From NCBI GenBank assembly GCA_028823995.1, contig JAPPFD010000009.1, forward strand, positions 20,361 through 84,360: a DNA stretch of 64,000 nucleotides. Direction: 5' to 3'. The translations under genes were made by a program, and so were the position numbers. Source of the DNA: a bacterium (GTDB lineage Bacteria; Actinomycetota; Acidimicrobiia; Spongiisociales; ZC4RG35). This document shows, one piece after another, positions 4,260 through 36,852 of the stretch. Under the pieces are notes generated by a model. The model was given only the letters and a program-made list of their open reading frames with translations. It made no database searches and was not told the origin of the DNA. The number at the start of each line of letters is the position of its first letter. Position 1 is the first letter of the stretch.

Positions 4260-4705
4260 CACATGTCGCCCGGAGAGGGCTCGATCCGGACCGGGTCTCC
4301 CACCCGGATGAGGCCGCCCTTCACCACCTGGGCTGCGATGCCGGACCGGCCCTCGAGGGCTTCGCGCGCCCGGGGGCCGACGGTCTCGTTCATCCGCTCG
4401 CACGGCGGGCAGTCCCGCCACACCGACAGGACGGCCTCGCCGAGATGGATCAGGGTGCCGGTGGTGCGGGGGAGGCGATCAGCGTCCACGGTGATGTTGC
4501 GGCGGGTTGCGCCCGCCGGTATGGGGTATCCCAACCGGCCGGCGGCCTCGTCCAGCTCGCCCTCGGCGACCATCGTCACGTTGCGGATGGTGCCCAGGTA
4601 GCGGTCGCCTTCCAGGCCCGCTCCCTCCACCGCCAACACCTCGTTGACCTCGATCGGGTCGGCCTTGTGGAGCGGCGCCAGGTGGAGGTGGGTCACCGAG
4701 GCCAT
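4259..4705 (-). CDS. MOSC domain-containing protein (YiiM-like)
   Basis: GDRY...RRNITVD...CPPCERM...GGL..VGDPV pattern. It begins 4 nt after the nrdJ stop and overlaps the methyltransferase start. Confidence 0.75.
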   Translation of the reverse strand: MASVTHLHLAPLHKADPIEVNEVLAVEGAGLEGDRYLGTIRNVTMVAEGELDEAAGRLGYPIPAGATRRNITVDADRLPRTTGTLIHLGEAVLSVWRDCPPCERMNETVGPRAREALEGRSGIAAQVVKGGLIRVGDPVRIEPSPGDM

Positions 4706-11489: not shown

Positions 11490-11566
<77 letters not shown>

Positions 11567-14182: not shown

Positions 14183-14728
14183 ATGACCGACGGGCCGATG
14201 GCTAACAGCTACTGGGTTGTCCCGGGCCGTTTCGCGGCAGGCGAGTATCCGGGCCACCCGAACCCTCGGATCGCCGCCGCCAGGTTGAGAACTCTGCTCG
14301 GAGCGGGCATAGATCACTTCATCGACCTGACCACGGAGAGGGACTGGCTGGAGCCCTACGCGGAGATGGCGGTGCGGGAAGGCCGGCGGCTCGGCAGGAG
14401 GGTGGTCCATGAGCGGCATCCCATAGTCGACATGAGGGTGCCCCGCAGTCCGCGGGTGGCGGCGGGCGTCCTCGACGCAGTGGACGCGGCGTTGGATGAC
14501 GGCAGGAGTGTCTACCTGCACTGCTGGGGCGGCGTGGGTAGGACCGGCACGATGGTCGGATGCTGGCTGGTCCGCCACGGCAAGACCGGAGATGAGGCCC
14601 TGGCACAGGTGGCGGAGTGGTGGCGGGGAGTAGACAAGGCGTACCGCCTCCCCAACTCGCCCCAGACCCCCGAGCAGTGCGCGTACGTCCGCAACTGGAC
14701 CGAACCGGCCGGATTTCACCGGGAATGA
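14183..14728 (+). CDS. dual-specificity / protein-tyrosine phosphatase family protein
   Basis: CX5R P-loop VYLHCWGGVGRTGTMVGCWLV. The stop overlaps the next gene start (ATGA at 14725-14728). Confidence 0.75.
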   Translation: MTDGPMANSYWVVPGRFAAGEYPGHPNPRIAAARLRTLLGAGIDHFIDLTTERDWLEPYAEMAVREGRRLGRRVVHERHPIVDMRVPRSPRVAAGVLDAVDAALDDGRSVYLHCWGGVGRTGTMVGCWLVRHGKTGDEALAQVAEWWRGVDKAYRLPNSPQTPEQCAYVRNWTEPAGFHRE

Positions 14729-16215
14729 GGGAGCCGGGAAGGAAGCGTCGGCACGACCTCGACGCGCTGAGGGGGTTCGCCATGTTGCTGGGGGTGGGGC
14801 TGCACGCTGCGTTGGCCTTCTTCCCGGCGCCGTGGTGGGTGCAGGACCGGACCTCGAGCTTCGACGGCCCCTACGACGAGTTCCTGTGGGCGGTGCACGG
14901 GTTCCGCATGCCGGTGTTCTTCCTGATGAGCGGGTTCTTCACCGCCCTGCTGTGGCGGCGGCGCGGGCTGCGGTCGCTCCTCGGCCACCGACTGCGGCGG
15001 GTGGCCCTGCCGCTCCTGATCGGCCTGGTGACCCTGGTGCCGGCGGTGGACTGGGTGGGTGAGAGGGCCGTGGTCGCCCAGGCGGAGCCGCTGGTGGAGT
15101 CCGGGGACATCATCGGGTTGGTGTTCGTCGGAGACATTGAAGGGGTGGAGGGGTTGCTGGACCGGGGCGTGGACATCGAGACGCGGACCGAGCCCGGCGG
15201 GTGGACCTCCCTCCATGCCGCCGCGTTCACCGGCAACGCCGAGATGGTGGAGTTGCTCATATCCAGGGGGGCGAAGCCGGCGGTCACCGCCGACGCCTCC
15301 GATGGGGAGACGCCCCTGGGACTTGCCTTCCACTTCGGCCACGAGGAGGCCACCGATCTGCTGGTTGCCCACGAGGGGAGGGATCCCCTTCCCGAGTCGA
15401 TGGAGTGGTCGGACATCCCCGGCTGGGCGGAGGGCGCGGAGGACCCCGAGGAGGACCGGCTGACCCAGATCGAGCACCTCCATCACCTCTGGTTCCTGTG
15501 GTTCCTCCTGTGGCTGGTGGCGGGATTCGCGGTGGTGGCGGCGATCGCCGATCGGCGGGAACCCGGCCGGGGGGTGTGGCCGGGGAGGGTCATGTGGCTG
15601 ATGATCCCATTGACCCTCATCCCGCAGTTGGAGATGGGCGGCGGAGGGTCCTATCCCATCTTCGGGTCGGACACCTCCGACGCGCTCCTGCCCCTTCCCC
15701 ACGTGCTGGCCTACTACGCCACGTTTTTCACGTTCGGAGCGCTGATGTACGGCCGCCGGAACCGGAAGGGAAACCTCCTGGTCGAAACCATCGGCAGGCC
15801 CTGGTGGCTGGTTCTCTCCGTCTCGTTCCTGGTTGTGCTGCCCTTCGGGCTGCATTTCACCTTCGTGGAGTTCCAGTGGCAGGTGGCGTCCGTCTTGCAG
15901 GTGCTCTACGCCTGGGGCATGTGCTTCGGCCTGATGGGGCTGTTCCGGGTGTTGCTGCCCCGGGAACGCCGGGGGATCCGGTATTTGTCCGACTCCGCCT
16001 ATTGGGTCTACCTGGTGCATCTCCCCCTGGTTGTGGCCGCCCAGATGTTGGTCTTCGATTGGGACCTCTTCGCCGGAGTCAAGTTCCTCCTGATCTGTGG
16101 GGTGGTGACGGCCGTCTCTCTCCTCTCCTATCAGGCGTTCGTCCGCTACACGCCGATAGGAGCCATGCTGAACGGAAAGAAGGTCCGTACCGCCCGGTCC
16201 GGAGCCTCTGGCTAG
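14725..16215 (+). CDS. acyltransferase family 3 (OpgC/OafA-like) membrane protein with inserted ankyrin repeats
   Basis: The N-terminus LDALRGFAMLLGVGLHAALAF... and multiple TM helices fit acyltransferase_3. An insert of ~130 aa contains two or three ANK repeats (GWTSLHAAAFTGNAEMVELLISRGAKP; DGETPLGLAFHFGHEEATDLLVAHEG). Confidence 0.75.
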   Translation: MREPGRKRRHDLDALRGFAMLLGVGLHAALAFFPAPWWVQDRTSSFDGPYDEFLWAVHGFRMPVFFLMSGFFTALLWRRRGLRSLLGHRLRRVALPLLIGLVTLVPAVDWVGERAVVAQAEPLVESGDIIGLVFVGDIEGVEGLLDRGVDIETRTEPGGWTSLHAAAFTGNAEMVELLISRGAKPAVTADASDGETPLGLAFHFGHEEATDLLVAHEGRDPLPESMEWSDIPGWAEGAEDPEEDRLTQIEHLHHLWFLWFLLWLVAGFAVVAAIADRREPGRGVWPGRVMWLMIPLTLIPQLEMGGGGSYPIFGSDTSDALLPLPHVLAYYATFFTFGALMYGRRNRKGNLLVETIGRPWWLVLSVSFLVVLPFGLHFTFVEFQWQVASVLQVLYAWGMCFGLMGLFRVLLPRERRGIRYLSDSAYWVYLVHLPLVVAAQMLVFDWDLFAGVKFLLICGVVTAVSLLSYQAFVRYTPIGAMLNGKKVRTARSGASG

Positions 16216-16327: not shown

Positions 16328-16419
16328 TCCAAATGATGTAGGATCAATCTTCCGAATAATGTAGGATAGAACCTCCAAATAATGTAGGATAAGCTTTCCG
16401 AATAATGTAGGATAGATCT
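16328..16419. repeat. four tandem 23-bp AT-rich direct repeats (TCCRAATRATGTAGGATNNNNNN)
   Basis: The units are tccaaatgatgtaggatcaatct, tccgaataatgtaggatagaacc, tccaaataatgtaggataagctt and tccgaataatgtaggatagatct. They occupy -124 to -33 relative to the ATG of the DUF4143 ATPase gene. GC is ~35% against a ~68% background. Confidence 0.9.
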
Positions 16420-16451: not shown

Positions 16452-17738
16452 ATGTATCCGACAAGTTCTTCACCTCTGCCGACTTATCGTGATCGGGTCG
16501 TCGACCATGAAATACCGGCTGTCCTAAAAGCGGCGCGGGCCGTCCTCATCGAAGGTCCCAAGGCATGCGGCAAAACCTGGACCGGACAGCGTTTCGCTCG
16601 AAGCGAGGTGTTCTTGGAGGAACGTCCCGACCTCTGGGGGATAGCGACCCAGGCCACGGGGTTGTTGCTCGACGGCGCAACTCCCCGTCTCCTCGACGAG
16701 TGGCAAAGGGTTCCCGATCTCTGGCACCTGGTGCGGGCCGCATGCGATCGACGGGGACTGCCGGGGCAGTTCATTCTCACCGGTTCCGCGGTCCCCACCG
16801 ATGAATTGACCCGACACTCCGGAGCGGGACGTATCAGCCGTGTTCGGATGCGTCCGATGTCGCTCTACGAAATGGGGCTTTCCGCCGGAGAGGTGTCCGT
16901 GGGCGAGATGCTTGAGGGCTTCGAGACCTGGGAGTGCCCTGTGGTTGAGGCGTCTTTGGACGTGCCGGAGTTGGTGGCCGCCGCCTGCCGGGGCGGCTGG
17001 CCTCAATTTATCGATTTTCCCCTGGAGGACGCCATGAGGCAAGTCCGCAGCTATGTAGACAACATATGCCGCGTGGATGTGTCAGTTGTGGACGGTGTCC
17101 GGAGGAGTCCCGAAAGGGTGATGCGTCTGATGCAGTCGTTGGCGCGCAACGTCGCCAATCATGTCGGATTCGACAAGCTCGCCCAGGAGACCGAGGGGCA
17201 AACTCCGCTCAACCGTGGCACGGTCAGGACCTACATGGAGACATTGAGTCGACTGTTCGTGGTGGAGGATCTGCCCGCCTGGAATGTCCATCTTCGGTCG
17301 AGAGGACGTCTACTCAAGGCGCCGAAACGTCATTTCGTGGATCCCTCCCTGGCTCCGGCTGCATTGGGAGTGGGCCCTCGAAGATACTTAGAGGACCTGA
17401 ATGCCTTCGGGTTCCTTCTCGAGTCGATGGCGGTGCGCGACTTGCGCGTCTACGCCCAGGCTCACGACGCCTCGGTCTATTACTACCGGGACTACGGCGG
17501 CTTGGAGGTAGACGCGGTGATCGAGGCTCGGGACGGGCGCTGGATCGCGGCCGAGGTCAAACTGGGCGGGTCCGAGGCCATCGACCAGGGGGCGGCGGCC
17601 TTGCTGAAGTTGCGGGATCGGGTTACCGAACGACGGGCTGCCCGTCTTGCCCGGTTGCTGGTCATAACCGGAGGCCGGTACAGCTACGTCCGTCCTGACG
17701 GGGTGGCGGTGGTTCCACTGGCGGTGCTGGGCCCGTAA
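16452..17738 (+). CDS. AAA-family ATPase with DUF4143 C-terminal domain (COG1373-like)
   Basis: Walker A LIEGPKACGKTW with the layout typical of the 'ATP-binding protein' AAA_14/DUF4143 family. Confidence 0.8.
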   Translation: MYPTSSSPLPTYRDRVVDHEIPAVLKAARAVLIEGPKACGKTWTGQRFARSEVFLEERPDLWGIATQATGLLLDGATPRLLDEWQRVPDLWHLVRAACDRRGLPGQFILTGSAVPTDELTRHSGAGRISRVRMRPMSLYEMGLSAGEVSVGEMLEGFETWECPVVEASLDVPELVAAACRGGWPQFIDFPLEDAMRQVRSYVDNICRVDVSVVDGVRRSPERVMRLMQSLARNVANHVGFDKLAQETEGQTPLNRGTVRTYMETLSRLFVVEDLPAWNVHLRSRGRLLKAPKRHFVDPSLAPAALGVGPRRYLEDLNAFGFLLESMAVRDLRVYAQAHDASVYYYRDYGGLEVDAVIEARDGRWIAAEVKLGGSEAIDQGAAALLKLRDRVTERRAARLARLLVITGGRYSYVRPDGVAVVPLAVLGP

Positions 17739-18260: not shown

Positions 18261-19151
18261 ATGCTTGAACTGAGCCGACTCTCCAAGCGTTACGGGGAGG
18301 TTCAGGCCCTGGACGAGTGCAGCTTCCGGGTGGAGCGGGGACGGATGCTCGGCTTTCTCGGACCCAACGGGGCGGGAAAGACCACCGCCATGCGCTCGGT
18401 CTTCAATCTGGTGAGCCTCGATGAGGGGACGGTCACCTGGAGGGGCAGACCCGTGGGGCAGGCGGAGCGCATGCGGTTCGGATACATGCCCGAGCAGCGG
18501 GGCCTCTATCCGAAGATGAGAATCGGGAAGCAGCTCGTCTACCTGGGCCGGATTCACGGGATGACCACCGCCGACGCCACCGCGGCGGCCGAACGGTGGC
18601 TCGAGGAGTTGGGGCTGGGCGACCGGACCGGCGATCCCCTCGAGAAGCTGTCGCACGGGAACCAGCAGCGGGTCCAGTTGGCGGCCGCGCTGATCCATGA
18701 CCCGGAACTGCTGGTGCTGGACGAGCCGTTCAGCGGACTGGACCCCTTCGGGGTGGAGACCATGTCGGAGATCCTCCGTTCCCGGGCCGCTGAGGGGGCG
18801 GCGGTGGTGTTCTCCAGCCACCAGTTGGACATGGTGGAGGACCTGTGCCAGGACGTGGCCATCATCCACCAGGGCAGGGTGGTGATGGGGGGAGAGGTCC
18901 GCCAACTCAAGATGGACTCCCCCTACTGGGTCATCGAGGTGGAGATGCGCGGCGGGGACACCGAGCGTCTGAGCCGGCTCGAATCAGTGGTCTCGGTGGA
19001 CTTCGACGGCTACCGGCACCGGATAGTGGCGAGAAAGGGAGGGGATTTGAGCGATCTCGTCTCCCGGCTCGACCTGGGCGGCGACGTCCGTCACTTCACC
19101 TTCTCGGCGCCCTCTCTGTCGGAACTCTTCAAAGAGGCGGTGGCGGGATGA
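18261..19151 (+). CDS. ABC transporter ATP-binding protein (ABC-2 subfamily)
   Basis: GPNGAGKTT, LSHGNQQRV and LLVLDEPFSGLD motifs. The stop overlaps the permease start (ATGA at 19148-19151). Confidence 0.9.
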   Translation: MLELSRLSKRYGEVQALDECSFRVERGRMLGFLGPNGAGKTTAMRSVFNLVSLDEGTVTWRGRPVGQAERMRFGYMPEQRGLYPKMRIGKQLVYLGRIHGMTTADATAAAERWLEELGLGDRTGDPLEKLSHGNQQRVQLAAALIHDPELLVLDEPFSGLDPFGVETMSEILRSRAAEGAAVVFSSHQLDMVEDLCQDVAIIHQGRVVMGGEVRQLKMDSPYWVIEVEMRGGDTERLSRLESVVSVDFDGYRHRIVARKGGDLSDLVSRLDLGGDVRHFTFSAPSLSELFKEAVAG

Positions 19152-20344
19152 CCTCCTGGCAGGCGATCCGGCTGGTGATGGGACGCGAGATCAGGGAGCG
19201 GTCCCGGTCGGGGGCCTTCATCGTCTCGGTGGCGATCACGCTGCTGTTGGTGGCGGCGGTCCTGTTCCTTCCGCTGATCTTCGCCGATGACGATGTGCGC
19301 TACGAGGTGGGGGTGGTGGGCGACGGCAGCCAGGTGGTGATCGACGCCGCTGTGGCGCTGGCCAATCCCCCGGGCAGGGAGGTGAGGACCACCATCGAGG
19401 TGGTCGCCTTCGCCACCCGGGAAGCGGCCGAGGCAGCCGCCGACGCCGAGGAAGTGGACGGGGTGTTGATGGACGGCAGGGAGATAGTGGTCCGGGGTGC
19501 CGGAGGCGAAGCGGGCGGCGCCCTCGAGTCCCTCCTCCAGCGGGGCGCCCGCTCGGTGCAGATCGAGAGCCTGGTCGCCTCCGGAGCCGGGGAGGTGGTG
19601 GACATTCTCACCTCCCAGCCACTCGAGGTGAGGTCCTTGTCGGGCGCGGATGCAGAGGAGAACAGCGAGCGCTCGGTGATCGCCTTCGGGGGGCTGATGC
19701 TGCTCTACATGGCCGTGCTCCTCTACGGGTCGTTGATCCTGAGCGGCGTCACCGAAGAGAAGACCAACCGGGTGGTGGAGGTGCTGCTGGCCGCCTTCGA
19801 GCCCTGGCAACTGCTGGCGGGAAAGATCCTGGGAATCGGGCTCCTGGGACTTTGCCAGTTCGTGGGGACGGTGGTGATCGCTCTGGTGGGAATCAACCTG
19901 ACCGGTGTCATCGACCTGCCGGAGTTCCCGGTCGACAGCATCCTGGTGCTGGTGCTGTGGTTCATCCTGGGATACTCCCTGTTCGCGGTGATGTTCGGCG
20001 CAGCAGGGGCTCTGGTCTCCCGAGCGGAGGACGCACAGACCGTGGTGGCGCCGATCTCCCTGGTGGCGGTCGCAGGGTTCTTCATCGCCATCCAGGCAGT
20101 GAGCAATCCCACCAGCACCCTATCGGTGGTGACCACCTTCATCCCGCCCACCGCCCCCTTCGTGGCGCCGGTGCGTTTCGCCTTCCAGGCGATCCCGCTC
20201 TGGCAGATGGCGGTGTCCGTGGCGCTGATGATCCTCACCGTTGTGTTGATGACCCGCCTGGCCGGCCGGGTGTACCTGGGCGGCCTGCTGCGCTTCGGAA
20301 GCAGGGTGGGGATCAGGGAGGCATTCCGCACGGCCGAACTCTGA
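19148..20344 (+). CDS. ABC-2 family transporter permease (NatB-like)
   Basis: An N-terminal TM helix is followed by a periplasmic domain and a C-terminal 5-6 TM bundle. It is translationally coupled to the ATPase. The ORF-track start at 18845 is an upstream extension. Confidence 0.75.
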   Translation: MTSWQAIRLVMGREIRERSRSGAFIVSVAITLLLVAAVLFLPLIFADDDVRYEVGVVGDGSQVVIDAAVALANPPGREVRTTIEVVAFATREAAEAAADAEEVDGVLMDGREIVVRGAGGEAGGALESLLQRGARSVQIESLVASGAGEVVDILTSQPLEVRSLSGADAEENSERSVIAFGGLMLLYMAVLLYGSLILSGVTEEKTNRVVEVLLAAFEPWQLLAGKILGIGLLGLCQFVGTVVIALVGINLTGVIDLPEFPVDSILVLVLWFILGYSLFAVMFGAAGALVSRAEDAQTVVAPISLVAVAGFFIAIQAVSNPTSTLSVVTTFIPPTAPFVAPVRFAFQAIPLWQMAVSVALMILTVVLMTRLAGRVYLGGLLRFGSRVGIREAFRTAEL

Positions 20345-20529
20345 CCTCCCTTCCAGCGGGAGGATGAGGTCCGACGGACAGGCTTTTTAGCTGTGCCCCT
20401 CCCTGTCGTGGAGCCAAGCAGAGTGCTACTACTAACCCAAATACGGCCGACCGGGACGATGAATAACGATTGGGTAGCCACCGCGCACTGTCACAACCCC
20501 GTGTTACCTTGTGGATTGATGGAAGTCGT

Positions 20530-21759
20530 ATGACCACCTATTCGCCTGCCTCTTCGCTTGGGTGGCTCGACTTCGACGCCGCCGCCACAGAGCGAGTCGC
20601 CACGCTGTTGCGCTCACTCCAAGAGCCCACCACGCTGGATGTCCTAGGTCTGGGATCGGTGCGCGACGCTTTCTCCGGAATGCTGCACCCCGGCACTTCG
20701 TACATCCAGACAAAGCTGCGGTATTTCATGTTCCTGCCATGGACATTTCAGCGCATTGAACAGGACCAGGTTGCACCCGGAGATTTCTTCCAGCGCCTTC
20801 GCCACGATGAGGCCCTGCTCATCGACTGTCTGCGCCATCTGGGACCCGGTAATCGAGTGATCGGCTTCCAGGCCGGTAGAAACTTGAAGCGTATGCCCAG
20901 TTCCATCTACTGGGGAGGACTCGGGGACTGGGGACTGCGACGACTGCCCCTGAGCCTGGGCGAGTACGCACAGCGGGCAGCCGCCCTGGGCCGGTACCGG
21001 GCGGCGCGCGATGACGACGGCATCGTTACGGACCCAAGCAGTTCGATGTGGGCCCCGCTGCCGCCTGCTCCCGAGGGATTCCTGGAGGCCGACATCACCT
21101 TCAAGTTGAGGAGCGTGGAGGCCGCCACCATAGTCGAGAACATTCGGCATCGGCAGGGGGACACCCTTCTGGCCTGGTTGTTGACCCAGCCACACCTCGC
21201 CGCCGGCTGCGACTTTCCATGGGAGGTGTCCAGCCACGGCATGCGCGCGGAACTAACCGATGTGGTTCGCCACGCCCGGTGCTTCTCCGAGTTGACCGCC
21301 GGTCCGCAGTACGCCTACAACGTCCTGGTGGCGCGCCGGGCTCGACAGGAGCTCGGTTGGGACACCGCCAGGCTGTTGGAGGGCCAACTCGGTCGCCTGC
21401 AGCGCTGGGTCGAGATGGTCCAGAGTCGCCACGGGGAACTTTTATCCTGGGTCGACGACCTGCCAGCATTCTGGAAGCTTCTTGATAGGTACCGCATCCG
21501 GCGGAGTACCCGTGACTTTATTGCCGGGATCGTCCGTACGGCCGTTGACAATCCTGAGGGGTTCGAGCAAGATTCGACGGTTCATGAGCAGATCCGCCTT
21601 CGGGAGATCCGGTTGAAGGGGAAGCGGGCCCGTCTGGCTTACCGCGCCGCACTGGAGAACTGGAACCAAACTGCGGCCGGCGGCCAGCTCGGGTACCGGT
21701 GGTCCATCGCTAAGAACTACATTGGCGAGATCGCCGACGCGTTGGCGGGTGGCCGCTGA
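20530..21759 (+). CDS. hypothetical protein, first gene of the PLD/SNF2 operon (409 aa)
   Basis: The ATG at 20530 has GGAAG 5 nt upstream. I recognise no catalytic motif (FMFLPWTFQRIE, IYWGGLGDWGLRRL). Its stop overlaps the start of the PLD gene (TGATG at 21757-21761). Confidence 0.5.
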   Translation: MTTYSPASSLGWLDFDAAATERVATLLRSLQEPTTLDVLGLGSVRDAFSGMLHPGTSYIQTKLRYFMFLPWTFQRIEQDQVAPGDFFQRLRHDEALLIDCLRHLGPGNRVIGFQAGRNLKRMPSSIYWGGLGDWGLRRLPLSLGEYAQRAAALGRYRAARDDDGIVTDPSSSMWAPLPPAPEGFLEADITFKLRSVEAATIVENIRHRQGDTLLAWLLTQPHLAAGCDFPWEVSSHGMRAELTDVVRHARCFSELTAGPQYAYNVLVARRARQELGWDTARLLEGQLGRLQRWVEMVQSRHGELLSWVDDLPAFWKLLDRYRIRRSTRDFIAGIVRTAVDNPEGFEQDSTVHEQIRLREIRLKGKRARLAYRAALENWNQTAAGGQLGYRWSIAKNYIGEIADALAGGR

Positions 21760-23642
21760 TGCTACTGCCGACCAACCGGCTGACGCTGATCGATGCGATG
21801 CGCCCCCCGGCCGGATTCGGGTTGGAGTCCGCCATGGCGGTGACGTTCACCCTTAACTTGAGCGCACTTCTAGCGGCGCCCGCCGCCTTCGCCCTTGCCG
21901 GCCTGCGGGATACCACTGGTGATGCCAGTGGGTCTACGCCAGTGGAGCTGGTTCACGCACTTCGTGCTCATGCTCACAAACTCACCGTCTTCAGCGAGGC
22001 CGGCGGGATCAGTTTGCCGCCGCCCAGCAGGGCATTCGCCTTTCTGGAGCGGGCGGTGGTCCCGGTCAGGGCCCCCGGAGGAGGGATCGTGCATCCCAAA
22101 GTCTGGGTGCTGCGCTACCAGCCATCTGATGATTCAAGGGGCGGCGACCCGGCTGCGCAGTGCCTTCGCGTGCTTATCGCCAGTCGCAATCTGACCTTCG
22201 ACGAGAGTTGGGACACTCTGTTAAGACTTGATCAGACGCCAGACACTCGCGGCGCGAGGCTGGACGGGGTGGGGAGACTGTTCAGGGGTCTGCTCGACGC
22301 TGCCGTTGGGAGAGTAGAAACAGAGCACGCAGACCGGGTGCGCTTGCTGTCCGAAGCTCTCCAGGACGCACGGTTCGAGTTACCAGCGGGCGTTGATGAC
22401 CTGGCGATCCATCTGTTTGGCCTCGGAGAGGCGTCCCCGCCATTCCCAAGGGATCCCGAGCGCGCGCTGATCATTTCACCCTTTCTGACCGACGACTTCT
22501 TCGGAGGGGTGTATCCCGGGCGGGTGGACACGCTGGTCAGCCGGCAGGAGGCACTCGACGGGCTGCAGGAGGGCACTCTCGGCTCCATCCAGAACAAGTA
22601 CGTCTTCGACGACGGCAGCCCTTTCGAACACGCGGAACCAGTCGGCGGACGCACCCAGGAGGACAATGGCGAACACCCCGGCGCCGCCGCACCACCGGCG
22701 CCGTCACCCGCCGACCCCGGCCGGCCCCTGGTCGGAGTCCACGCCAAGGTCTTCGCCTTCGAGACGGGAGATCGGATCAGACTGTTCGTCGGGTCGGCCA
22801 ACGCCACCGGCCCTGCTTTCGGCGGCAACGTCGAGATACTGGCCGAACTCGGAGGGTCGGTCTCCGATTTGGGGATCGATCGACTCTGTGGCGGCGATGG
22901 GGAGGATCATGGGTTGCTCAGCCTGTTCCGCGACTACCACCGGGTCGTGGTGGAAGACGGCAATGGGAACGGCGTCTCCATCCTTGACCGGACGCGTCGT
23001 CGTATTGCTCGCCTTCCTATGGTGGGAGTAGTGGAGGGCACCGGTGAAGGAGACAACGAGTGGGCCGTGACCTACCGCTCGGATGAGTCCGTGCCTGCCG
23101 TGGAGGGGGTCGAGATTCACTGCTGGCCGCTGACCACTCCCGGCAATCGGCGGCAGGTCGGGACGGCCGGGCCCTTCGAGGCGCGTTTTGAGACAACCCT
23201 GGAGGCTCTCAGCAGTTTTCTGGCATTCGAACTGACCCATGAGAGCGGTGAGCAGACGGGATTCGTGGTCCCCGTGCCGCTGGACGGAGTGCCCGAGCAC
23301 CGGATCCGACGCTTGGTTGGAGTGCTGATCGGCAATGCCGAGCGGTTCCTGCGTTATCTGGTGGCGCTCCTGTACGACGACTCCGATCAACTCGACCTCC
23401 AAGAAGTCTCCAGGACTCTTGACCGATCGGTATCCGATGGGACTGGCTCGATCAGCTTTGCAGTGCTGGAACGGTTGCTGCGAACCATGAGGAGCGATCC
23501 GAGGAGACTTGAGGGACTGCACCCACTGATCGCCGATCTTCGGGCTGACGATGCATTGCCGCCGGGCTTTGCCGAACTCTGGGACGCCATCTACGACGTG
23601 GCTATTAAATGTACTTGTCAAAAGGGCGCCAACCTGCCATGA
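21759..23642 (+). CDS. phospholipase D-superfamily (two-HKD) nuclease-like protein
   Basis: A degenerate first HKD motif, HPKVWVLRY...VLIASRNLT, is followed by a canonical second motif, GVHAKVFAFETGDRIRLFVGSANATGPAF (HxK-x4-D-x6-GSxN). This resembles Nuc/NgoFVII/DrmC-type PLD nucleases. The stop overlaps the helicase start (ATGA at 23639-23642). Confidence 0.7.
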   Translation: MLLPTNRLTLIDAMRPPAGFGLESAMAVTFTLNLSALLAAPAAFALAGLRDTTGDASGSTPVELVHALRAHAHKLTVFSEAGGISLPPPSRAFAFLERAVVPVRAPGGGIVHPKVWVLRYQPSDDSRGGDPAAQCLRVLIASRNLTFDESWDTLLRLDQTPDTRGARLDGVGRLFRGLLDAAVGRVETEHADRVRLLSEALQDARFELPAGVDDLAIHLFGLGEASPPFPRDPERALIISPFLTDDFFGGVYPGRVDTLVSRQEALDGLQEGTLGSIQNKYVFDDGSPFEHAEPVGGRTQEDNGEHPGAAAPPAPSPADPGRPLVGVHAKVFAFETGDRIRLFVGSANATGPAFGGNVEILAELGGSVSDLGIDRLCGGDGEDHGLLSLFRDYHRVVVEDGNGNGVSILDRTRRRIARLPMVGVVEGTGEGDNEWAVTYRSDESVPAVEGVEIHCWPLTTPGNRRQVGTAGPFEARFETTLEALSSFLAFELTHESGEQTGFVVPVPLDGVPEHRIRRLVGVLIGNAERFLRYLVALLYDDSDQLDLQEVSRTLDRSVSDGTGSISFAVLERLLRTMRSDPRRLEGLHPLIADLRADDALPPGFAELWDAIYDVAIKCTCQKGANLP

Positions 23643-26600
23643 CCGAGCAACGCATCGATGTGGCCGCGGCGTTGGCGGACCTGAAGGACTTTCAGCGGCG
23701 TACGGCTGAATGGGCGTTCGAGCGCATGTTCGCGGATCACGATCCTGCACTCCGGTTTCTGGTGGCCGACGAAGTTGGCCTCGGCAAGACCCATGTCGCC
23801 AAGGGGGTGATAGCGCAGGTCATCGACTACCTTGGGCGAACGGGTGATAGGCGCCATGATGTCGTCTATGTGTGCTCGAACGCTGCCATCCTTCGCCAAA
23901 ACCTCAGAAAGCTCACGCCCGAAGGTATAGAGCCGACAATCGTGGAGGTCGACCGGCTCACGATGCTCCCTCAAGTCGAGCTAAAGGAGGAACACGAAGG
24001 AAGACCAGGCATCAACCTATTGGGGATATCGCCGGGCACATCGCTGCGGTTCGGCCGCAACACAGGCACATTCCCGGAACGGGCCCTTGCCTATACGTTC
24101 CTTCGATCCCACTGGGGCTGGAGTGCTATGAAGAAGCGCCGAGCCCGCTGGATTTTCTGGTTAGGCATCACAGCAGGTGATCTTGACGCGCGGCTCAGGG
24201 CATGCGAACGCTGGTATCGCCCACGCATCACGGGAGCGTTGCCCGAGTTCGCCAAACGGCTCGAGGAGTTGGACACCGAGCGACGGACAAACGGACAGCA
24301 ACCAATTCGGGCATTATTTGAGGAAATTGTCGACGGACTCAGGTACAAACGTTCTTTCCCCCGCCGGATTCGGACACTGCAAGGAGAATTGATAGCGGAA
24401 CTACGCCGTGTGATGGCCATCGTCGGTATTGATGCGCTTCGCCCTGACCTCATTGTGCTGGACGAGTTTCAGCGATTCAAAGATTTGCTCCATTCTCATC
24501 CCGACAACCTGGCCGCAGAACTTGCCAAAAGGCTGTTCGAATACGAGGACCCAGAGAGCGGCCGACCAACCCGCACTCTGTTGCTCTCCGCCACCCCCTA
24601 CCGCATGTACACCACCGCCGACGACGCCGACGACGATCATTACACGGACTTCCTGGATACGTGCCGGTTTCTCTACGGGGATTCCGGGCGTGTCGAGGGA
24701 CTACGGCGCCGGTTTGCTGATCTCCGCCGGACGCTCACCACCTTGGGGGCGTTCGAAGACACCGAGATGGCGTTGAACACTGCGGCGGACATCTGCGGGA
24801 AGATCGGTTCGGAGTTGCGGCAGGTAATGGCCCGGACTGAACGGCTGGCCGCCACTCCCGACCGAGACGGGATGCTCGGGGACCACGTAGTACCGGCGTC
24901 GGTGGGGCCCGACGACCTACGATCGTATCTCCGGTTCGGCGAGATCTCCCGGGTCGTGGGGTATCCCGATCCCACCGAGTACTGGAAATCGGCGCCGTAC
25001 CTGATCAACTTCATGGAACGTTACAAGCTCAAACAAGCCGTGGAGCAGGCCGCCGAGGCGGGCCGGTTCCTCGACAGCGGCCTGCTCGAGCAGGGTCCGG
25101 GACTGTTGAGTTGGGAGGAGGTGGAGCGTTACCGGGCCATCGACCCTCAGAACGGGCGGCTACGGTGGCTGCTGGAAGACCTGCAGGGCTCCCGGGCCTT
25201 CGAGATTCTGTGGGTGCCGCCGTCAATCCGCTACTACAACACGGGATCGGTCTATGAATCCGAAGAGACCCACAGGTTTACCAAGCGATTGATCTTCTCG
25301 GGTTGGGTGATTGTCCCGAAAGTGGTGTCGTCGCTGGTCAGCTTCGAGGCCGAGCGCCGGGCTTATCGGGACCGCCACCACAAATACACGGCCCAGTACC
25401 GACGGCGCGGGGGCGGGCGGCTGACATTCCGCACCACCGAGCGGACCGCCGGTGATCGCCGCTCCGGGGAAGCCACCGGCGACCGGCGCGCCGCCTCGAT
25501 GACCACCCTGTTGCTCTGCTGGCCGAGCATCACCCTCGCTCAACTGGGGGATCCCCTGCATTTGGATACCGCAACGCGGGACCGCCCCGATGTGATCGCC
25601 TCCATCACTAAGTGGGTTGAGGCCGCCTTCGCACCATTGGCGGGCTCTGCGCCCTCCGAAGGTGCGGTTGACCAACGGTGGTACTGGGCCGCCCCGATGC
25701 TGCTCGACTACCGGGACTACCCAGAGGTCGTTCGTCAGCTGCTGTCCGATCAGTCGGCGTGGCTCGGGGAGGGAGGACGGCCCGACCAGAACTTCCGAGC
25801 GCACCTCGCCGAAGCCTGGACATTGCTCGACCACGGTGTCGAAGCCCTAGGTCGGCCTCCTGAGGACCTCTATATGGTGCTAGCCGAACTGGCGCTAGGA
25901 GGGCCGGCCCAGTGCGCGCTCCGGGCAATCCGCCGAGTGGTGGGCCTGCCGCACGATCACCGGGCGATGACGGCCAGCGCGGCCCTGATCAGCGAGGCCT
26001 TCCGGAGTTTCTTCAACGCCCCGGAGGTCACGGCCATAGTCGCCGGTGACCAAACGGAGCACACGGAGTCCGAGCAAGCGGCTCCGGTTGTCGGCCGATA
26101 CTGGCGCGACGTGGCGGCTCACTGTGTAGATGGCAATCTGCAGGCAGTACTCGATGAGCACGCTCATGTTCTCCGAGATTGGCTGGGATATGTCAGACTG
26201 GGCGACTCTGCACAACGGGCCGAGGCCGCCGAAGACATCGCCGGAAGGATCGGCGGGTCCCTGCGACTTCGAACCTCGGCCCTGCGGGTGGACATTCCTC
26301 GTCGGACCGACGATGGCCAGGCGGAGGTTCTCTCTGTGAGCCGCATGCGCACCCGCTTCGCGGTGACCTTCGGCGACCAGGCGCTCGACGAGGGCGGCCA
26401 GGCGCGGGTGGGCGCCGTGTCGGTCGCCTTCAATTCGCCGTTCTGGCCGTTCGTGTTGGCTTCTACCTCGGTTGGGCAGGAAGGACTGGACTTTCACCTG
26501 TGGTGCCATGCCGTGGTGCATTGGAACCTTCCGACCAGTCCGGTGGATCTCGAACAGCGCGAGGGTCGGGTCCATCGCTACAAATGCCATGCGGTTCGTC

Positions 26601-26965
26601 GGAACATCGCCGAAACGTTCGGGCCTGAAGTCCTGAGGGCGGGAGAGCCCGAAGGTGATCTCTGGCAGGCCCTCTTCGACCGAGCGGCATCCGAGGGAGG
26701 ATCCGACGACGGGGAGATGGCGCCCTATTGGGTGTTTCACCAAGGCCAAGCAAAGATCGACCGTTTGGTACCCATGCTGCCCTTCAGCCGCGAGTCGGCG
26801 AGACTTCCACGACTGCGGAAGTCCCTCGCCATCTACCGCCTCGCCTTCGGCCAGCCCCGCCAGGAGGAACTGGTCGAACTGTTGAGCGATCGCATCAGTT
26901 CCGACGACCTGCGCGGTCGGCTCTCGGAACTGCGGATCGACCTGGCGCCTCCACCCGTAAACTAA
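23639..26965 (+). CDS. SNF2-like superfamily-2 helicase/ATPase (1108 aa)
   Basis: Motif I is LVADEVGLGKTHVAKG and motif II is LIVLDEFQRFKDL. The helicase C lobe has STSVGQEGLDFH (motif V) and LEQREGRVHRYK (motif VI). The I-II spacing of ~225 aa is unusually long, and a further ~550-aa insertion precedes the C lobe. Confidence 0.8.
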   Translation: MTEQRIDVAAALADLKDFQRRTAEWAFERMFADHDPALRFLVADEVGLGKTHVAKGVIAQVIDYLGRTGDRRHDVVYVCSNAAILRQNLRKLTPEGIEPTIVEVDRLTMLPQVELKEEHEGRPGINLLGISPGTSLRFGRNTGTFPERALAYTFLRSHWGWSAMKKRRARWIFWLGITAGDLDARLRACERWYRPRITGALPEFAKRLEELDTERRTNGQQPIRALFEEIVDGLRYKRSFPRRIRTLQGELIAELRRVMAIVGIDALRPDLIVLDEFQRFKDLLHSHPDNLAAELAKRLFEYEDPESGRPTRTLLLSATPYRMYTTADDADDDHYTDFLDTCRFLYGDSGRVEGLRRRFADLRRTLTTLGAFEDTEMALNTAADICGKIGSELRQVMARTERLAATPDRDGMLGDHVVPASVGPDDLRSYLRFGEISRVVGYPDPTEYWKSAPYLINFMERYKLKQAVEQAAEAGRFLDSGLLEQGPGLLSWEEVERYRAIDPQNGRLRWLLEDLQGSRAFEILWVPPSIRYYNTGSVYESEETHRFTKRLIFSGWVIVPKVVSSLVSFEAERRAYRDRHHKYTAQYRRRGGGRLTFRTTERTAGDRRSGEATGDRRAASMTTLLLCWPSITLAQLGDPLHLDTATRDRPDVIASITKWVEAAFAPLAGSAPSEGAVDQRWYWAAPMLLDYRDYPEVVRQLLSDQSAWLGEGGRPDQNFRAHLAEAWTLLDHGVEALGRPPEDLYMVLAELALGGPAQCALRAIRRVVGLPHDHRAMTASAALISEAFRSFFNAPEVTAIVAGDQTEHTESEQAAPVVGRYWRDVAAHCVDGNLQAVLDEHAHVLRDWLGYVRLGDSAQRAEAAEDIAGRIGGSLRLRTSALRVDIPRRTDDGQAEVLSVSRMRTRFAVTFGDQALDEGGQARVGAVSVAFNSPFWPFVLASTSVGQEGLDFHLWCHAVVHWNLPTSPVDLEQREGRVHRYKCHAVRRNIAETFGPEVLRAGEPEGDLWQALFDRAASEGGSDDGEMAPYWVFHQGQAKIDRLVPMLPFSRESARLPRLRKSLAIYRLAFGQPRQEELVELLSDRISSDDLRGRLSELRIDLAPPPVN

Positions 26966-26979
26966 GACCGGCCAGGATC

Positions 26980-28125
26980 ATGCCGTTTTCTGAAGAGCAC
27001 CAGATGTTTCGCCGAGTGGTGCGTAGGTTCGTGGAGGAGGAGATCAATCCCCGGGTGGACGGGTGGGAGGAGGCAGGTGAGATGCCGCTGCATGAGGTGT
27101 TCTCCCAGATGGCCGACCTGGGTTTTCTGGGACTGGAGCACGACCCCGCCTACGGAGGGCAGGGCGCCGACCATCTGTTCACTGTGGTCTTGGCGGAGGA
27201 ACTGGGACGGGCCGATCACGGGGCGATCGGGATGGCGGTGGGAGTGCAGACGGACATGGCCACCCCCTCTTTGCACCGGCACGGCTCGGAGGAACTGAAG
27301 CGGCGTTACCTGGCGCCGGCGCTCCGGGGGGAGATGGTGACCTCCATCGCGGTCACCGAGCCCGACGCCGGATCGGACGTGGCCGCCATCAAGACCCGGG
27401 CGGTCCGGGACGGGGATCGCTGGATCATCAACGGATCGAAGATGTACATCACCAACGGTCTGCAGGCCGACTGGCTGTGCCTCCTGGCCAGGACGTCGGA
27501 CGAGGGCGGGCATGCGGGGATGAGCCAGATCCTGGTACCCACCGACGTGGCGGGCTTCGAGGTCTCCCGAAAGCTTGACAAGCTGGGGATGCGAGCCTCG
27601 GACACGGGTCTTCTGACCTTCTCCGACATGGCGGTCCCGGTCTCCAACACCATCGGTGAGGCGGGGATGGGTTTCCAGCAGCAGATGTCGCAGTTCGTGG
27701 TGGAGCGGATGTGGGCGGCCTACTCGGCGGTGGGGGCCTGTGAGAGGGCGCTGGAACGGACCGCCCGGTACCTCCGGGAACGAAGGGTGTTCGGAAAACC
27801 GCTGCTGGGCCATCAGTACGTCAGTTTCCGGCTGGCGGAGCTCGCCGCCGAACTGGACCTGTTGCGCCGCTACAACTACGCGACAGCCGAGGCACACATG
27901 CGGGGAGAAGACCCCACCAGGTTCGCCACGATCGCCAAGCTCAAGTCGGGGAGGCTCATGCGGGAGACCGCCGATCAGGTGCTCCAGTTCCACGGGGGGA
28001 TCGGGTACATGGAGGAGACCTGGACCGCACGGTTCTTCCGCGACAGCCGGCTGGCCTCGATCGGCGGCGGTTCCGACGAGACCATGCTGGAGGTGCTGTC
28101 CCGCATCGACGGCTTCCAGGCGTAG
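26980..28125 (+). CDS. acyl-CoA dehydrogenase
   Basis: MPFSEEHQMFRRVVRRFVEEEINPRVDGWEE... and the whole sequence follow the ACAD fold. The catalytic region includes GGIGYMEE. Confidence 0.9.
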   Translation: MPFSEEHQMFRRVVRRFVEEEINPRVDGWEEAGEMPLHEVFSQMADLGFLGLEHDPAYGGQGADHLFTVVLAEELGRADHGAIGMAVGVQTDMATPSLHRHGSEELKRRYLAPALRGEMVTSIAVTEPDAGSDVAAIKTRAVRDGDRWIINGSKMYITNGLQADWLCLLARTSDEGGHAGMSQILVPTDVAGFEVSRKLDKLGMRASDTGLLTFSDMAVPVSNTIGEAGMGFQQQMSQFVVERMWAAYSAVGACERALERTARYLRERRVFGKPLLGHQYVSFRLAELAAELDLLRRYNYATAEAHMRGEDPTRFATIAKLKSGRLMRETADQVLQFHGGIGYMEETWTARFFRDSRLASIGGGSDETMLEVLSRIDGFQA

Positions 28126-28178
28126 GAGAGACTTCCCCTGTATGTTTCGGGAGTGACATTCCCCTGATTCCAAGGAGG

Positions 28179-28634
28179 TTGCGAGTGGGAGCGATAACCG
28201 GCCACCATCACACGGGGATACAGGTCACCGACCTGGAGAGGTCTCTGCGGTTCTACCGGGACCTGTTAGGGCTGGAAGTGGTCCATGTGTGGAACCGCCA
28301 GGCGCCTTACATCGAGGAGTTGTTGGGGTATCCAGGCGTGGACATGCACGGGGTGGTGATGCGGATGCCCGACTCCGACAGTGTCCTCGAGATTCTGGAG
28401 TATCGCAACGTGGAGCGCAAGGCCATCGACCCGGGCACCGCCAATCCCGGCACGGCCCATGTCGCCTTCCGGGTGGATGACTGCGATGCGCTGTACGAGG
28501 AACTAACCCGAAAAGGGGTCAAGTCGGTCTCGCAGCCGGTCACGCCCACTATCGGTCCCAACAAGGGCGGCAGGACCGTGCTGATGCTCGACCCCGACGG
28601 CTTTCGGATCGAACTCCTCCAACCACCGCGATGA
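28179..28634 (+). CDS. VOC family protein (glyoxalase/bleomycin-resistance/dioxygenase fold)
   Basis: HHTGIQVTDLERSLRFYRDLLGLEV...AHVAFRVDD pattern. Confidence 0.7.
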   Translation: MRVGAITGHHHTGIQVTDLERSLRFYRDLLGLEVVHVWNRQAPYIEELLGYPGVDMHGVVMRMPDSDSVLEILEYRNVERKAIDPGTANPGTAHVAFRVDDCDALYEELTRKGVKSVSQPVTPTIGPNKGGRTVLMLDPDGFRIELLQPPR

Positions 28635-28921
28635 CCGGTAGCAAGACCCTGCTCACAGAGGAGGAGATCGGTGAACTCTTGGCCACTCATCCGGAGTGGA
28701 GACTCGAGGGGGACGCGCTAAGGCGGTCCTACAGGTTCTCCAACTTCCGGGCCGCCTTCGCCTTCATGACCCACGTGGCGTTGATTTCCGAGCGCCTCTT
28801 CCATCATCCAGAGTTGTCCAACGTATACAACCAGGTGGAGTTGGCCATCTGGAGTCATGACGTCGGTGGCCTGACCGCCAGGGACCGTCGATTCGTCGAG
28901 TTGGTGGACGCGATCGGCTGA
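28631..28921 (+). CDS. 4a-hydroxytetrahydrobiopterin dehydratase (pterin-4-alpha-carbinolamine dehydratase)
   Basis: 96 aa with RFSNFRAAFAFMTHVALISERLFHHPELSNVYNQVELAIWSHDVGGLTARD. Its start overlaps the previous stop (ATGA). Confidence 0.8.
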   Translation: MTGSKTLLTEEEIGELLATHPEWRLEGDALRRSYRFSNFRAAFAFMTHVALISERLFHHPELSNVYNQVELAIWSHDVGGLTARDRRFVELVDAIG

Positions 28922-28997
28922 CATTTGGTTCGGGATTCCGGAAGGAAGTCCCACAGAGTGGTACTCTTTCGGTGCTAGACGGGCCGAGGGGATTGCG

Positions 28998-30749
28998 ATG
29001 AATTACGACCTTCAGACTCTCCGCGGAGATGTTCTCGGTGGGATCACCGCGGCAGTTGTCCTGTTGCCGATGGCCCTCGCCTACGGGGTGGTGTCGGGCC
29101 TGGGGGTGATCGCCGGCCTGTACGGCGCGGTGGCGGTGGGGCTGTTCGCGTCCCTCTTCTGGGGCACCAAGGCGCTGATCTCGGGTCCCACCGGCCCTAT
29201 GGCGGTGGCCATGGCGGTGGTGGTGGGGAGCTATGCGGAGAACATCATCGAGGCGTTCACGATCGTGATCATGGCCGGCGTCATCCAAATCCTCCTGGGC
29301 CTGATCAAGATGGGTCGCTACGTCGCCTATACGCCGTACTCGGTGATCTCGGGGTTCACGTCCGGTGTGGGCGTGATCATCGTCCTGCTCCAAGTGCTGC
29401 CCTTCCTGGGCGCCTCATCGCCCGGCGGGGGGACCTGGGGGGCGATCCGCGCCGTGCCCGACGCCGTGGCGTCGGTCAACTACCACGCACTGGCGATTGC
29501 CCTGGTGACCCTGGTGGTGACGGTGGTCTGGCCGACGAAACTGGCCAGGGCCCTGCCGCCCACCCTGGCCGCTCTGGTAGTCGGCACCCTCATGGGAGTG
29601 CTGTGGTTGAAGGAAGCGCCGCTCATCGGGACGGTCCCCACCGGCTTCCCGGACGTGATCGACACTCACTCCGTCCTCCAGCATGCGATCGGTTCCTTCC
29701 AGCCGGCCCTGGTGCTTGCCCTGCTGGCTTCGATCAACACCCTCCTCATGTCCCTGATCGCCGACTCTTTGACCCGGGGCACCCACAACCCCAACCGGGA
29801 GTTGATGGGCCAGGGGGTGGGGAACATCTTCTCGGGGCTCTTCGGCGGTATGCCGGGAGCGGGGAACATCCCCGCCACCGTGGTGAACGCCCGGATCGGC
29901 GGGAGGACGCCGGTGTCGGGCGTGCTCTGCGCGCTGGTCCTCATGTCCCTCGTCCTGGGACTGGGGGAGTACGTGGGAGAGATCCCCCACGCGGTGCTGG
30001 CCGGCATCCTGATGAAGGTGGGCTGGGACATCATCGACTGGAGATTCATAACCCGGATCCACCGGGTGCAGCGGGAGCACCTGGTGGTGATGGTCATCAC
30101 CCTGGGGCTCACCGTGTTCGCCGACCTGCTGAGCGCCATCATGCTGGGCCTGATCGTGGCGGCGTTGGTGAGCGCCCGCCAGTTCGAGTACCTGGAGTTG
30201 GACAGCGTGATCTCCGCGCCGCTGCTCGACATCAGCTTCCTGGCCGACGAGGAGGAAGAAGAGGACGGTGAACCGGACCTCGACAGCATGCTGGCCCTGC
30301 TGGGAGGTGACGACGAAGATGACGAGGATGGCGACGGCGAACCTGACGCCCTGGACAGCATGCTGGCCCTGCTCGGCGATGACGACGATGACGAGGACGA
30401 GTTCGACCCCTTCTCCGCCCGGTGCGGCCTGGTGTCTTTCCGGGGAAGCTTCACTGTGGCGTCATCCAACCGGATGTTCAGCACCATCAGCGTGGACATC
30501 CGGGACCACGAGGTGGTGATCCTCGACTTCTCCCAGACCGACTACATGGACGACAGCGCCGCGTTCGTGGTGGAGAGGTTGGTGGATGTCGCCATCGAGG
30601 AAGACACCGAGTGCATAGTGATGGGCCTGGGAGGCGCGGTCGGCGCCAGCCTCCAGAAGCTCCAAATACTGCGGAGCGTCCCCAAGGACCGTTATGTCGA
30701 GGACATGGACGAGGCCAAAGTAATCGCCAAGCAGATACTGGGGATTTGA
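28998..30749 (+). CDS. SulP family inorganic anion transporter with C-terminal STAS domain
   Basis: N-terminal SulP TM core (LRGDVLGGITAAVVLLPMALAYG...) with a C-terminal STAS domain. An acidic linker carrying a tandem duplication lies between them. Confidence 0.85.
   Translation: MNYDLQTLRGDVLGGITAAVVLLPMALAYGVVSGLGVIAGLYGAVAVGLFASLFWGTKALISGPTGPMAVAMAVVVGSYAENIIEAFTIVIMAGVIQILLGLIKMGRYVAYTPYSVISGFTSGVGVIIVLLQVLPFLGASSPGGGTWGAIRAVPDAVASVNYHALAIALVTLVVTVVWPTKLARALPPTLAALVVGTLMGVLWLKEAPLIGTVPTGFPDVIDTHSVLQHAIGSFQPALVLALLASINTLLMSLIADSLTRGTHNPNRELMGQGVGNIFSGLFGGMPGAGNIPATVVNARIGGRTPVSGVLCALVLMSLVLGLGEYVGEIPHAVLAGILMKVGWDIIDWRFITRIHRVQREHLVVMVITLGLTVFADLLSAIMLGLIVAALVSARQFEYLELDSVISAPLLDISFLADEEEEEDGEPDLDSMLALLGGDDEDDEDGDGEPDALDSMLALLGDDDDDEDEFDPFSARCGLVSFRGSFTVASSNRMFSTISVDIRDHEVVILDFSQTDYMDDSAAFVVERLVDVAIEEDTECIVMGLGGAVGASLQKLQILRSVPKDRYVEDMDEAKVIAKQILGI
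30267..30401 (+). repeat. in-frame tandem duplication (~69 bp x2) encoding acidic GEPD(L/A)LDSMLALLG-DDEDDED linker repeats inside the SulP gene
   Basis: Two near-identical units, ggtgaaccggacctcgacagcatgctggccctgctgg... and ggcgaacctgacgccctggacagcatgctggccctgctcg..., are read directly from the sequence. Confidence 0.7.
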
Positions 30750-34793: not shown

Positions 34794-34839
34794 TTCATGC
34801 TCCTTCCGGGCGGCGACCCATCATCCCCGACATGACTCC

Positions 34840-36798
<1,959 letters not shown>

Positions 36799-36852
36799 AG
36801 GGCCTAGAGGGTATCGCCGCGGGGCGGGTGGCCCGGTGGGGCCGGGACCGGA

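Follow-up and report, generated by a model that had tools for sequence, protein, structure and literature searches.

The window, a 64,000-nucleotide stretch of DNA from an uncultured Acidimicrobiia bacterium that is probably a sponge symbiont, contains three adjacent, mutually overlapping genes on one strand, preceded by a short conserved element:

20489..20512, plus strand: short element CTGTCACAACCCCGTGTTACCTT, conserved ahead of the operon; putative promoter (-10-like TACCTT) or operator
20530-21759, plus strand: zacA (gene 1), 409 aa, with an ATG start within an ORF open from 20470; DUF6361 protein
21759-23642, plus strand: zacB (gene 2), 627 aa; single-chain two-HKD nuclease of the PLD superfamily
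23639-26965, plus strand: zacC (gene 3), 1108 aa; SF2 (Swi2/Snf2-like) ATPase/helicase

As an earlier note on this DNA had reported, zacA and zacB overlap as TGATG (21757-21761) and zacB and zacC as ATGA (23639-23642); both overlaps were read directly from the sequence and agree with the coordinates, and the motifs quoted there for genes 2 and 3 all occur in the translations. Public gene calls on the same DNA give identical lengths for the three genes, and profile E-values from 1e-98 to 0 indicate that they are not chance ORFs. Such tightly overlapping genes are probably translationally coupled and expressed from a single transcript.

Comparison with PADLOC profiles assigned each product over its full length to a component of one system. 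The zacA product matched ZacA (1.6e-98) and Pfam PF19888 (177 bits, cut-off 25), DUF6361 being the ZacA domain; the zacB product matched ZacB (7.1e-133); and the zacC product matched ZacC (E=0, 1022.9 bits), with residues 5-1104 aligned to profile positions 3-1016 of 1019. Relative to these profiles, ZacB and ZacC are longer here by ~40 and ~90 residues, respectively. The locus is thus very probably a complete, chromosomal Azaca (ZacABC) anti-phage operon. A nuclease-helicase defence module with a third subunit had been anticipated from the sequence, and it corresponds to ZacA, ZacB and ZacC; the proposal that the system was uncharacterised falls with this clean assignment to a named one, in which gene 1 is the DUF6361 protein. 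Azaca is attributed to Millman et al. 2022 by the papers that cite it, the word itself being absent from the text of the 2022 preprint, whose figures presumably carry the names. The locus shares with it the DUF6361 protein, the two-HKD PLD nuclease and the large SF2 helicase in the same order, all of the catalytic residues, and the lack of a methyltransferase. It differs in its host, the tested systems coming from Bacillus and Klebsiella, and in occupying a chromosomal site that is fixed within the lineage. It is a routine further instance of a known system, and its importance lies mostly in annotation: Azaca (zacABC) is the right label, replacing 'DUF6361 / phospholipase D family / helicase', for one more actinobacterial example of a system already reported to be enriched in Actinobacteria.

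ZacB carries two HKD halves, HPKVWVLRY (112-120) with IASRNLT (140-146) and HAKVFAFE (328-335) with VGSANAT (344-350), so that both HxK catalytic motifs expected of the Azaca PLD-family nuclease are intact. The catalytic residues are invariant across 73 homologues. The first half had been described as degenerate, which is not really the case, since H112, K114, S142 and N144 are themselves invariant in this set and only the Asp position is occupied by Arg. The structural model has a PLD fold, with Tdp1 and PLD4 among its top-ranking structural matches. Model confidence is only moderate (pLDDT 70): residues 405-505 are moderately modelled and gave no identified fold match, the C-terminal ~120 residues are poorly modelled, and the C-terminal 263 aa searched alone against Pfam at E up to 10 yielded no additional domains.

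ZacC displays the helicase motifs DEVGLGKT (44-51), LDEFQRFK (274-281), STSVGQEGLDFH (942-953) and QREGRVHR (973-980). Across 63 homologues there is hardly any variation in motifs I (43-51), II (DEFQ, 275-278), SAT (317-319), V and VI, and none in Walker A (GLGKT, 47-51) and DEFQ. We obtained the same spacing of ~225 aa between motifs I and II as had been noted before, and SAT lies ~620 aa from motif V; the 570-aa insert, searched alone against Pfam at E up to 10, contained no additional domains. The protein also matched Pfam Helicase_C (6.7e-6), and its best PDB profile match was the RapA C lobe (2.7e-5). ZacA is predicted with confidence to be all-helical; its model retrieved no solved structural relative, a modest hint that solving the structure of the complex would be worthwhile. 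Its halves, run separately against Pfam at E up to 10, showed no additional domains, and single-sequence searches of the PDB with the three proteins returned nothing useful.

Experimental work on homologues provides the functional frame. Phage defence has been demonstrated for Bacillus and Klebsiella Azaca systems, with protection against T4 exceeding 10^6-fold. The Bacillus complex degrades T4 dsDNA, which depends on the nuclease site of ZacB, on Walker A of ZacC and on the presence of all three Zac proteins (bioRxiv 10.1101/2025.07.10.664194). Cleavage is obtained only with the ZacABC complex, mutants of the nuclease site or of ZacC Walker A being dead, whereas mutation of conserved ZacA residues affects neither complex formation nor in-vitro cleavage. 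Activity is seen from 10 nM, at a degenerate A/NT site and all along the T4 genome. In vitro, and in the absence of phage proteins, BmAzaca clearly favoured T4 DNA within a panel that also contained DNAs of other phages and of hosts, and glucosyl-hmC has been suggested as its cue.

By analogy, the three products translated from one overlapping transcript would assemble into a complex at this locus as well. ZacC, the motor needed for cleavage, would bind DNA and use ATP, with Walker A K50 and DEFQ 275-278 as the residues involved, possibly translocating along or remodelling the DNA, and this action would license the ZacB nuclease. ZacB, the effector, may function as a single-chain pseudo-dimer whose two HxK halves, H112/K114 and H328/K330, contribute to a single active site, predicted to cut dsDNA without metal through a covalent phospho-histidine intermediate. 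ZacA would be the obligatory third subunit, with a presumably structural or regulatory role. Incoming phage DNA would thereby be degraded directly, the preferred target of the tested homologue apparently being hypermodified T-even DNA. Taken together, degradation of phage DNA and the preference for T-even DNA would make Azaca functionally similar to an ATP-dependent, type IV-like restriction machine without a cognate methyltransferase. For such modification-dependent action, hinted at by the preference for T4 that one preprint describes, we consider the case about evenly balanced.

The degenerate A/NT motif and the cleavage along the entire T4 genome could instead reflect abortive infection, in which a phage cue activates the complex to degrade DNA indiscriminately, including that of the host, so that the infected cell dies. 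Several other nuclease-NTPase systems use this mode, and the genes around the operon offer no evident means of self-protection; as stated in the earlier note, no methyltransferase is adjacent, the nearest lying 16 kb away (3339-4421). However, the preference of BmAzaca for T4 DNA without any phage protein agrees with the target DNA being recognised directly, and we consider abortive infection improbable. The function of ZacA, the sparing of self DNA and the DNA feature recognised are questions for the family rather than for this locus.

The previously described neighbours were confirmed, namely a DUF4143/AAA_14 ATPase, an LMWPc/ArsC-like protein and an ABC-2 exporter lying between metabolic genes, as were AT-rich repeats, which consist of 23-nt tandem units (16328-16416). 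The 80 related loci span Acidimicrobiia, Dehalococcoidia, Gammaproteobacteria, Bryobacterales, Flavobacteriales and Planctomycetota, and nearly all of them preserve the A-B-C gene order as far as their contigs permit. Seven related genomes carry Azaca at a common site. Four of these Acidimicrobiia (L001, L003, L005 and L008) keep the order DUF4143 ATPase, Azaca, acyl-CoA dehydrogenase; one (L002) lacks the DUF4143 match, and in two (L014 and L042) the neighbourhood is rearranged. This shared gene order indicates an old site, fixed in the lineage. The earlier reading of the surroundings as an accessory stretch has to be qualified accordingly, the operon not being a recent island insertion. No integrase was found among the neighbours of the operon and no tRNA adjacent to it (the only one being tRNA-Met at 11490-11566), nor did a search for island boundaries and flanking direct or inverted repeats reveal anything of note.

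Alternatively, the genes could form a housekeeping DNA-repair or transcription module, built from a RapA-like remodeller and a Tdp1/PLD4-like phosphodiesterase and retained because of its conserved chromosomal site. Besides the structural resemblance to these proteins and the retention of the site in the seven relatives (two of them rearranged), this explanation draws on the position of zacC, which ends 14 nt before the start of the metabolic gene for acyl-CoA dehydrogenase. The wider distribution argues against it: most of the 80 loci have wholly different flanks, and 51 plasmids, including 20 conjugative ones, carry homologues, which can stand beside integrases, as on a Cronobacter IncFIB plasmid where consecutive genes encode an integrase, a DUF6361 protein, a PLD protein and a helicase. 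Degraded copies also occur (L022 and L042). The operon is also foreign to its neighbours in composition, with GC3 of 0.72-0.76 against 0.85-0.89 for the flanking genes, and divergence is faster in the Zac proteins than in those of the flanks (60-84% identity across relatives, compared with mostly 78-98%), as expected of fast-evolving defence genes. With phage protection shown for homologues as well, a housekeeping module appears very unlikely. At other loci, Azaca neighbours include PDC-S01, AbiLi, SoFic, Fic, Schlafen-like and HNH/DUF222 genes.

Within the defence interpretation, mosaic patterns and these identity values raise a speculative and, in our view, improbable scenario for sponge-associated Acidimicrobiia. 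Azaca alleles may swap or diversify at one fixed chromosomal hotspot, the system may act together with the DUF4143 ATPase repeatedly found linked to it (PADLOC candidate PDC-S01), and ZacA might serve as the reader and so determine the DNA modification under attack; the clade could then recognise a phage DNA modification other than T-even glucosyl-hmC.

Other PLD-helicase systems resemble Azaca in part, and the earlier view that the trio is not DISARM, SauUSI or Mokosh agrees with both profile scores and gene architecture. Type IV enzymes of the SauUSI type (PDB 7CLG) are single polypeptides with one HKD per chain that dimerise and carry a C-terminal modification-reading domain, whereas Azaca comprises three proteins, with two HKD halves per chain and the extra DUF6361 subunit. 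At this locus nuclease and helicase are encoded by separate genes, PADLOC PLD_Helicase reached only E=0.037 over 17 residues, and NCBIfam phospholipD_antiphage scored 22.9 against a cut-off of 1100. Mokosh, which like Azaca is proven anti-phage, also pairs a PLD nuclease with a helicase; however, that helicase is SF1 and Upf1-like (COG1112) and presumably senses RNA, cleavage by the type II enzyme that was assayed is restricted to ssDNA, and there is no DUF6361 subunit. The helicase here is SF2/Snf2-like, with RapA as best PDB match, and the PADLOC matches included no Mokosh model. Models of DISARM, DpdE, BREX-helicase, PDC-M27 and PLD-helicase gave only 40-55 residue matches to the helicase C lobe or HKD motif, far below cut-offs. 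DISARM, too, is a defence system that uses both a PLD-family protein and a Snf2-like helicase; it requires DrmA, DrmB and a methyltransferase, its DrmC being dispensable. A reduced or divergent DISARM that retained DrmC and DrmD after losing DrmA, DrmB and the methylase is scarcely credible, since the weak ZacB-DrmC and ZacC-DrmD matches are confined to ~35-50 residues of the HKD motif and helicase C lobe (NCBIfam DrmC 20.4 against 133, DrmD 43.7 against 610), none of the three lost genes is adjacent, and the full-length Zac profiles score far better.

A scan of the Azaca locus for sigma-70 consensus promoters and terminators recognised neither. The upstream element CTGTCACAACCCCGTGTTACCTT aligns in L001, L002, L003 and L005 and is degenerate in L008. 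Its TGTCAC core occurs in 14 of 79 upstream regions (13 loci and the window), 28-58 nt before the ZacA start, or 75 nt in L013, and it also precedes ZacA in the non-syntenic loci L006, L007, L009 and L043.

Three overlapping genes on the forward strand form a further, routine instance of the known anti-phage defence system Azaca (ZacABC), which later papers credit to Millman et al. 2022. ORF listing and translation place them as follows:

20530-21759, + strand, zacA (gene 1), 409 aa, with its ATG inside an ORF open from 20470
21759-23642, + strand, zacB (gene 2), 627 aa
23639-26965, + strand, zacC (gene 3), 1108 aa

PADLOC-DB profiles matched all three products over their full length: ZacA at 1.6e-98 (residues 8-405 on profile positions 3-394 of 396), ZacB at 7.1e-133 (1-614 on 1-580 of 586) and ZacC at E=0 with 1022.9 bits (5-1104 on 3-1016 of 1019). 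Pfam returned DUF6361 for gene 1 (6.5e-52), PLDc_2 alone and below threshold for gene 2, and Helicase_C alone for gene 3. An earlier note had read the trio as an uncharacterised defence system, a reading to be given up if a profile search assigned the genes cleanly to a named system; the search does so, and novelty falls, while the call of a defence function was right. NCBIfam profiles for DISARM DrmC/DrmD, DpdE, RapA and 'phospholipD_antiphage' were rejected, scoring 20-52 bits against cut-offs of 133-1100 over short motif stretches only.

The overlapping same-strand arrangement and every motif quoted in that note, each at its stated position, were recovered from the ORFs, translations and junction reads. 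At the zacA/zacB junction (GCTGATGCT), TGA and ATG have one base in common (21757-21761), and the zacB/zacC junction (CCATGACC) is an ATGA overlap at 23639-23642; with overlaps this tight, the operon is probably translationally coupled. Public gene calls on identical DNA (GCA_028819835.1 JAPPKR010000154.1 and an ENA assembly) likewise give 409, 627 and 1108 aa. Just 14 nt separate the zacC stop codon (TAA, 26963-26965) from the start ATG (26980) of an acyl-CoA dehydrogenase gene; a consensus scan detected no terminator, and the dehydrogenase gene may receive read-through from the defence operon.

Upstream of zacA, a conserved motif, TGTCACAC(C)CCCG..T(G/A)TTA (20489-20512), recurs ~28-58 nt from the gene in relatives from other genomes (L001-L009, L014, L042 and L043 of the surveyed loci) and accompanies the cassette into non-syntenic loci; in a second subgroup it is replaced by TGTCG(C/T)(A/G)C..GGTGCTTGACT. 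This element may be a promoter or operator. The position of ZacA codon 1 is conserved and the codon itself varies: ATG in the window, CTG as projected in L001, L003 and L005-L009, and TTG in L010, L014, L015, L031 and L042. In L001 an in-frame TAG lies eight codons upstream with no canonical start codon in between, and ZacA there would therefore begin at CTG or be shorter.

ZacA relatives number in the thousands: searches yielded 401 matches with the window protein as query and 5252 with a distantly related clostridial one, and every match has PF19888. The predicted ZacA model is all-helical and confident (pLDDT 84.5, pTM 0.82). For ZacB, the AlphaFold model is moderate overall (pLDDT 70) and good across the PLD core, and a ZacB profile finds its top PDB sequence match in SauUSI, a type IV restriction enzyme, at the PLD motif (7clg, 4.9e-5). 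Alignment of 73 homologues showed H112, K114, S142 and N144, together with H328, K330, S346 and N348, to be invariant. The first HKD motif, previously described as degenerate, has only its Asp replaced and looks functional, since both active-site halves are invariant. No assignable relatives were found for the beta-rich region at ~405-505 or the poorly modelled helical tail of ZacB. In ZacC, motifs I, II (DEFQ), III (SAT), V and VI show little or no variation among 63 homologues, and RapA, a Swi2/Snf2 protein, is the closest relative in the PDB, with the match limited to the C lobe.

PLD nucleases employ metal-independent phospho-histidine chemistry, for which the ZacB residues are intact in this copy, and ZacB would cut dsDNA by this route. 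The Snf2-like character of ZacC suggests that it translocates or remodels DNA, presumably presenting it to ZacB. Experimental work on Bacillus (Bm) and Klebsiella (Kp) Azaca operons reported >10^6-fold shielding of E. coli from T4, selective for T-even phages (bioRxiv 10.1101/2025.07.10.664194). According to the same preprint, purified BmAzaca prefers T4 dsDNA, with glucosyl-hydroxymethylcytosine suggested as the cue, and cleaves from 10 nM at a degenerate A/NT site; only the three-protein ZacABC complex cleaves, its stoichiometry could not be determined by the authors, and nuclease-site and ZacC Walker A mutants, the latter demonstrating a need for the ATPase, are inactive. The overlapped operon of the window would encode a comparable complex, and the preference for T4 DNA hints at modification-dependent restriction of a type IV-like kind. 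Mutating conserved ZacA (DUF6361) residues affected neither complex formation nor cleavage (bioRxiv 10.1101/2025.07.10.664194); as the protein is needed but tolerates changes to these residues in vitro, it more probably serves as a scaffold or regulator than as a catalyst. Azaca has separately been reported as enriched in Actinobacteria, at a time when its mechanism was not known.

In character, the window is an actinobacterial stretch of chromosome, containing UPF0182, class II ribonucleotide reductase and TypA/BipA, with metabolic genes either side of Azaca; the nearest genome in the 80-locus scan is an Acidimicrobiia MAG. GC3 is 0.72-0.76 in the Zac genes versus 0.85-0.89 in the upstream ABC transporter genes and the downstream SulP gene. 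In the closest relatives, L001, L002, L003, L005 and L008 (rearranged in L014 and L042), Azaca occupies the same site between an ABC-2 permease and an acyl-CoA dehydrogenase. Compared with window 18261-30749, flanking proteins there are mostly 78-98% identical and Zac proteins 60-84%, in a mosaic (ZacC 84% in L001, 69% in L003). Such a pattern argues that the site is old in this lineage, its alleles evolving fast or being exchanged, rather than newly acquired by insertion; it suggests a fixed hotspot at which alleles are swapped or selection is diversifying. Neither flanking repeats nor an adjacent tRNA or integrase were found at the window copy.

Scanning one genome per species gave 80 loci, and by tblastn nearly all retained the ZacA-ZacB-ZacC order where the contig was long enough. 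Hosts comprised Acidimicrobiia (many of them labelled sponge symbionts), Dehalococcoidia, Gammaproteobacteria, Bryobacterales, Flavobacteriales, Planctomycetota and cultured actinomycetes. Plasmids carry ZacC homologues too (51 plasmids, of which 20 are conjugative); among them are Cronobacter IncFIB plasmids on which an integrase lies directly upstream of the DUF6361-PLD-helicase genes. The best plasmid match, on the haloarchaeal plasmid NZ_CP100458.1 of Halomarina sp. BND7 (34786-37986), covers 99% of the query at 38.8% identity, and Azaca thus crosses the boundary between bacteria and archaea. Flanks in non-syntenic loci are unrelated to those of the window; among the 124 nearest ORFs from 31 such loci, HNH endonuclease/DUF222 (REP13E12-like) proteins account for 10-11 and are the commonest immediate neighbours in other Acidimicrobiia loci (L006-L047), DUF4143/PDC-S01 ATPases for five and a transposase for one, while Fic/SoFic, AbiLi and Schlafen-like proteins also recur. 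Plasmid carriage, the integrase and these defence-type neighbours thus bear out the note's expectation of a mobile, defence-linked family. Some copies are rearranged or have decayed: in L042 (9428-9532, 13092-14486) a 35-aa piece of an acyl-CoA dehydrogenase directly precedes ZacA and the ZacC match is confined to residues 1-465, and in L022 (11218-13384) ZacB and ZacC survive as fragments only.

Further genes of note in the window are:

2523-3212, AbiEii-like nucleotidyltransferase ORF, a weak match (8.7e-5)
3339-4421, - strand, type II-like N6/N4 DNA methyltransferase (PADLOC MTase_II 5e-154; Pfam N6_N4_Mtase)
16452-17738, DUF4143/AAA_14 ATPase, matching the PADLOC candidate defence gene PDC-S01 over its full length (5.4e-67)

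No restriction partner for the methyltransferase, which adjoins the AbiEii-like ORF, was identified in the window. The DUF4143 ATPase has a GC3 of 0.72, like the Zac genes, and is preceded by four AT-rich 23-nt tandem units (TCCAAATAATGTAGGATA...) at 16328-16416; at least 11 non-syntenic loci have such an ATPase no more than 10 kb from Azaca. An Acyltransferase_3 membrane protein (14617-16215) carries ankyrin repeats inserted at residues ~172-256, an unusual fusion.
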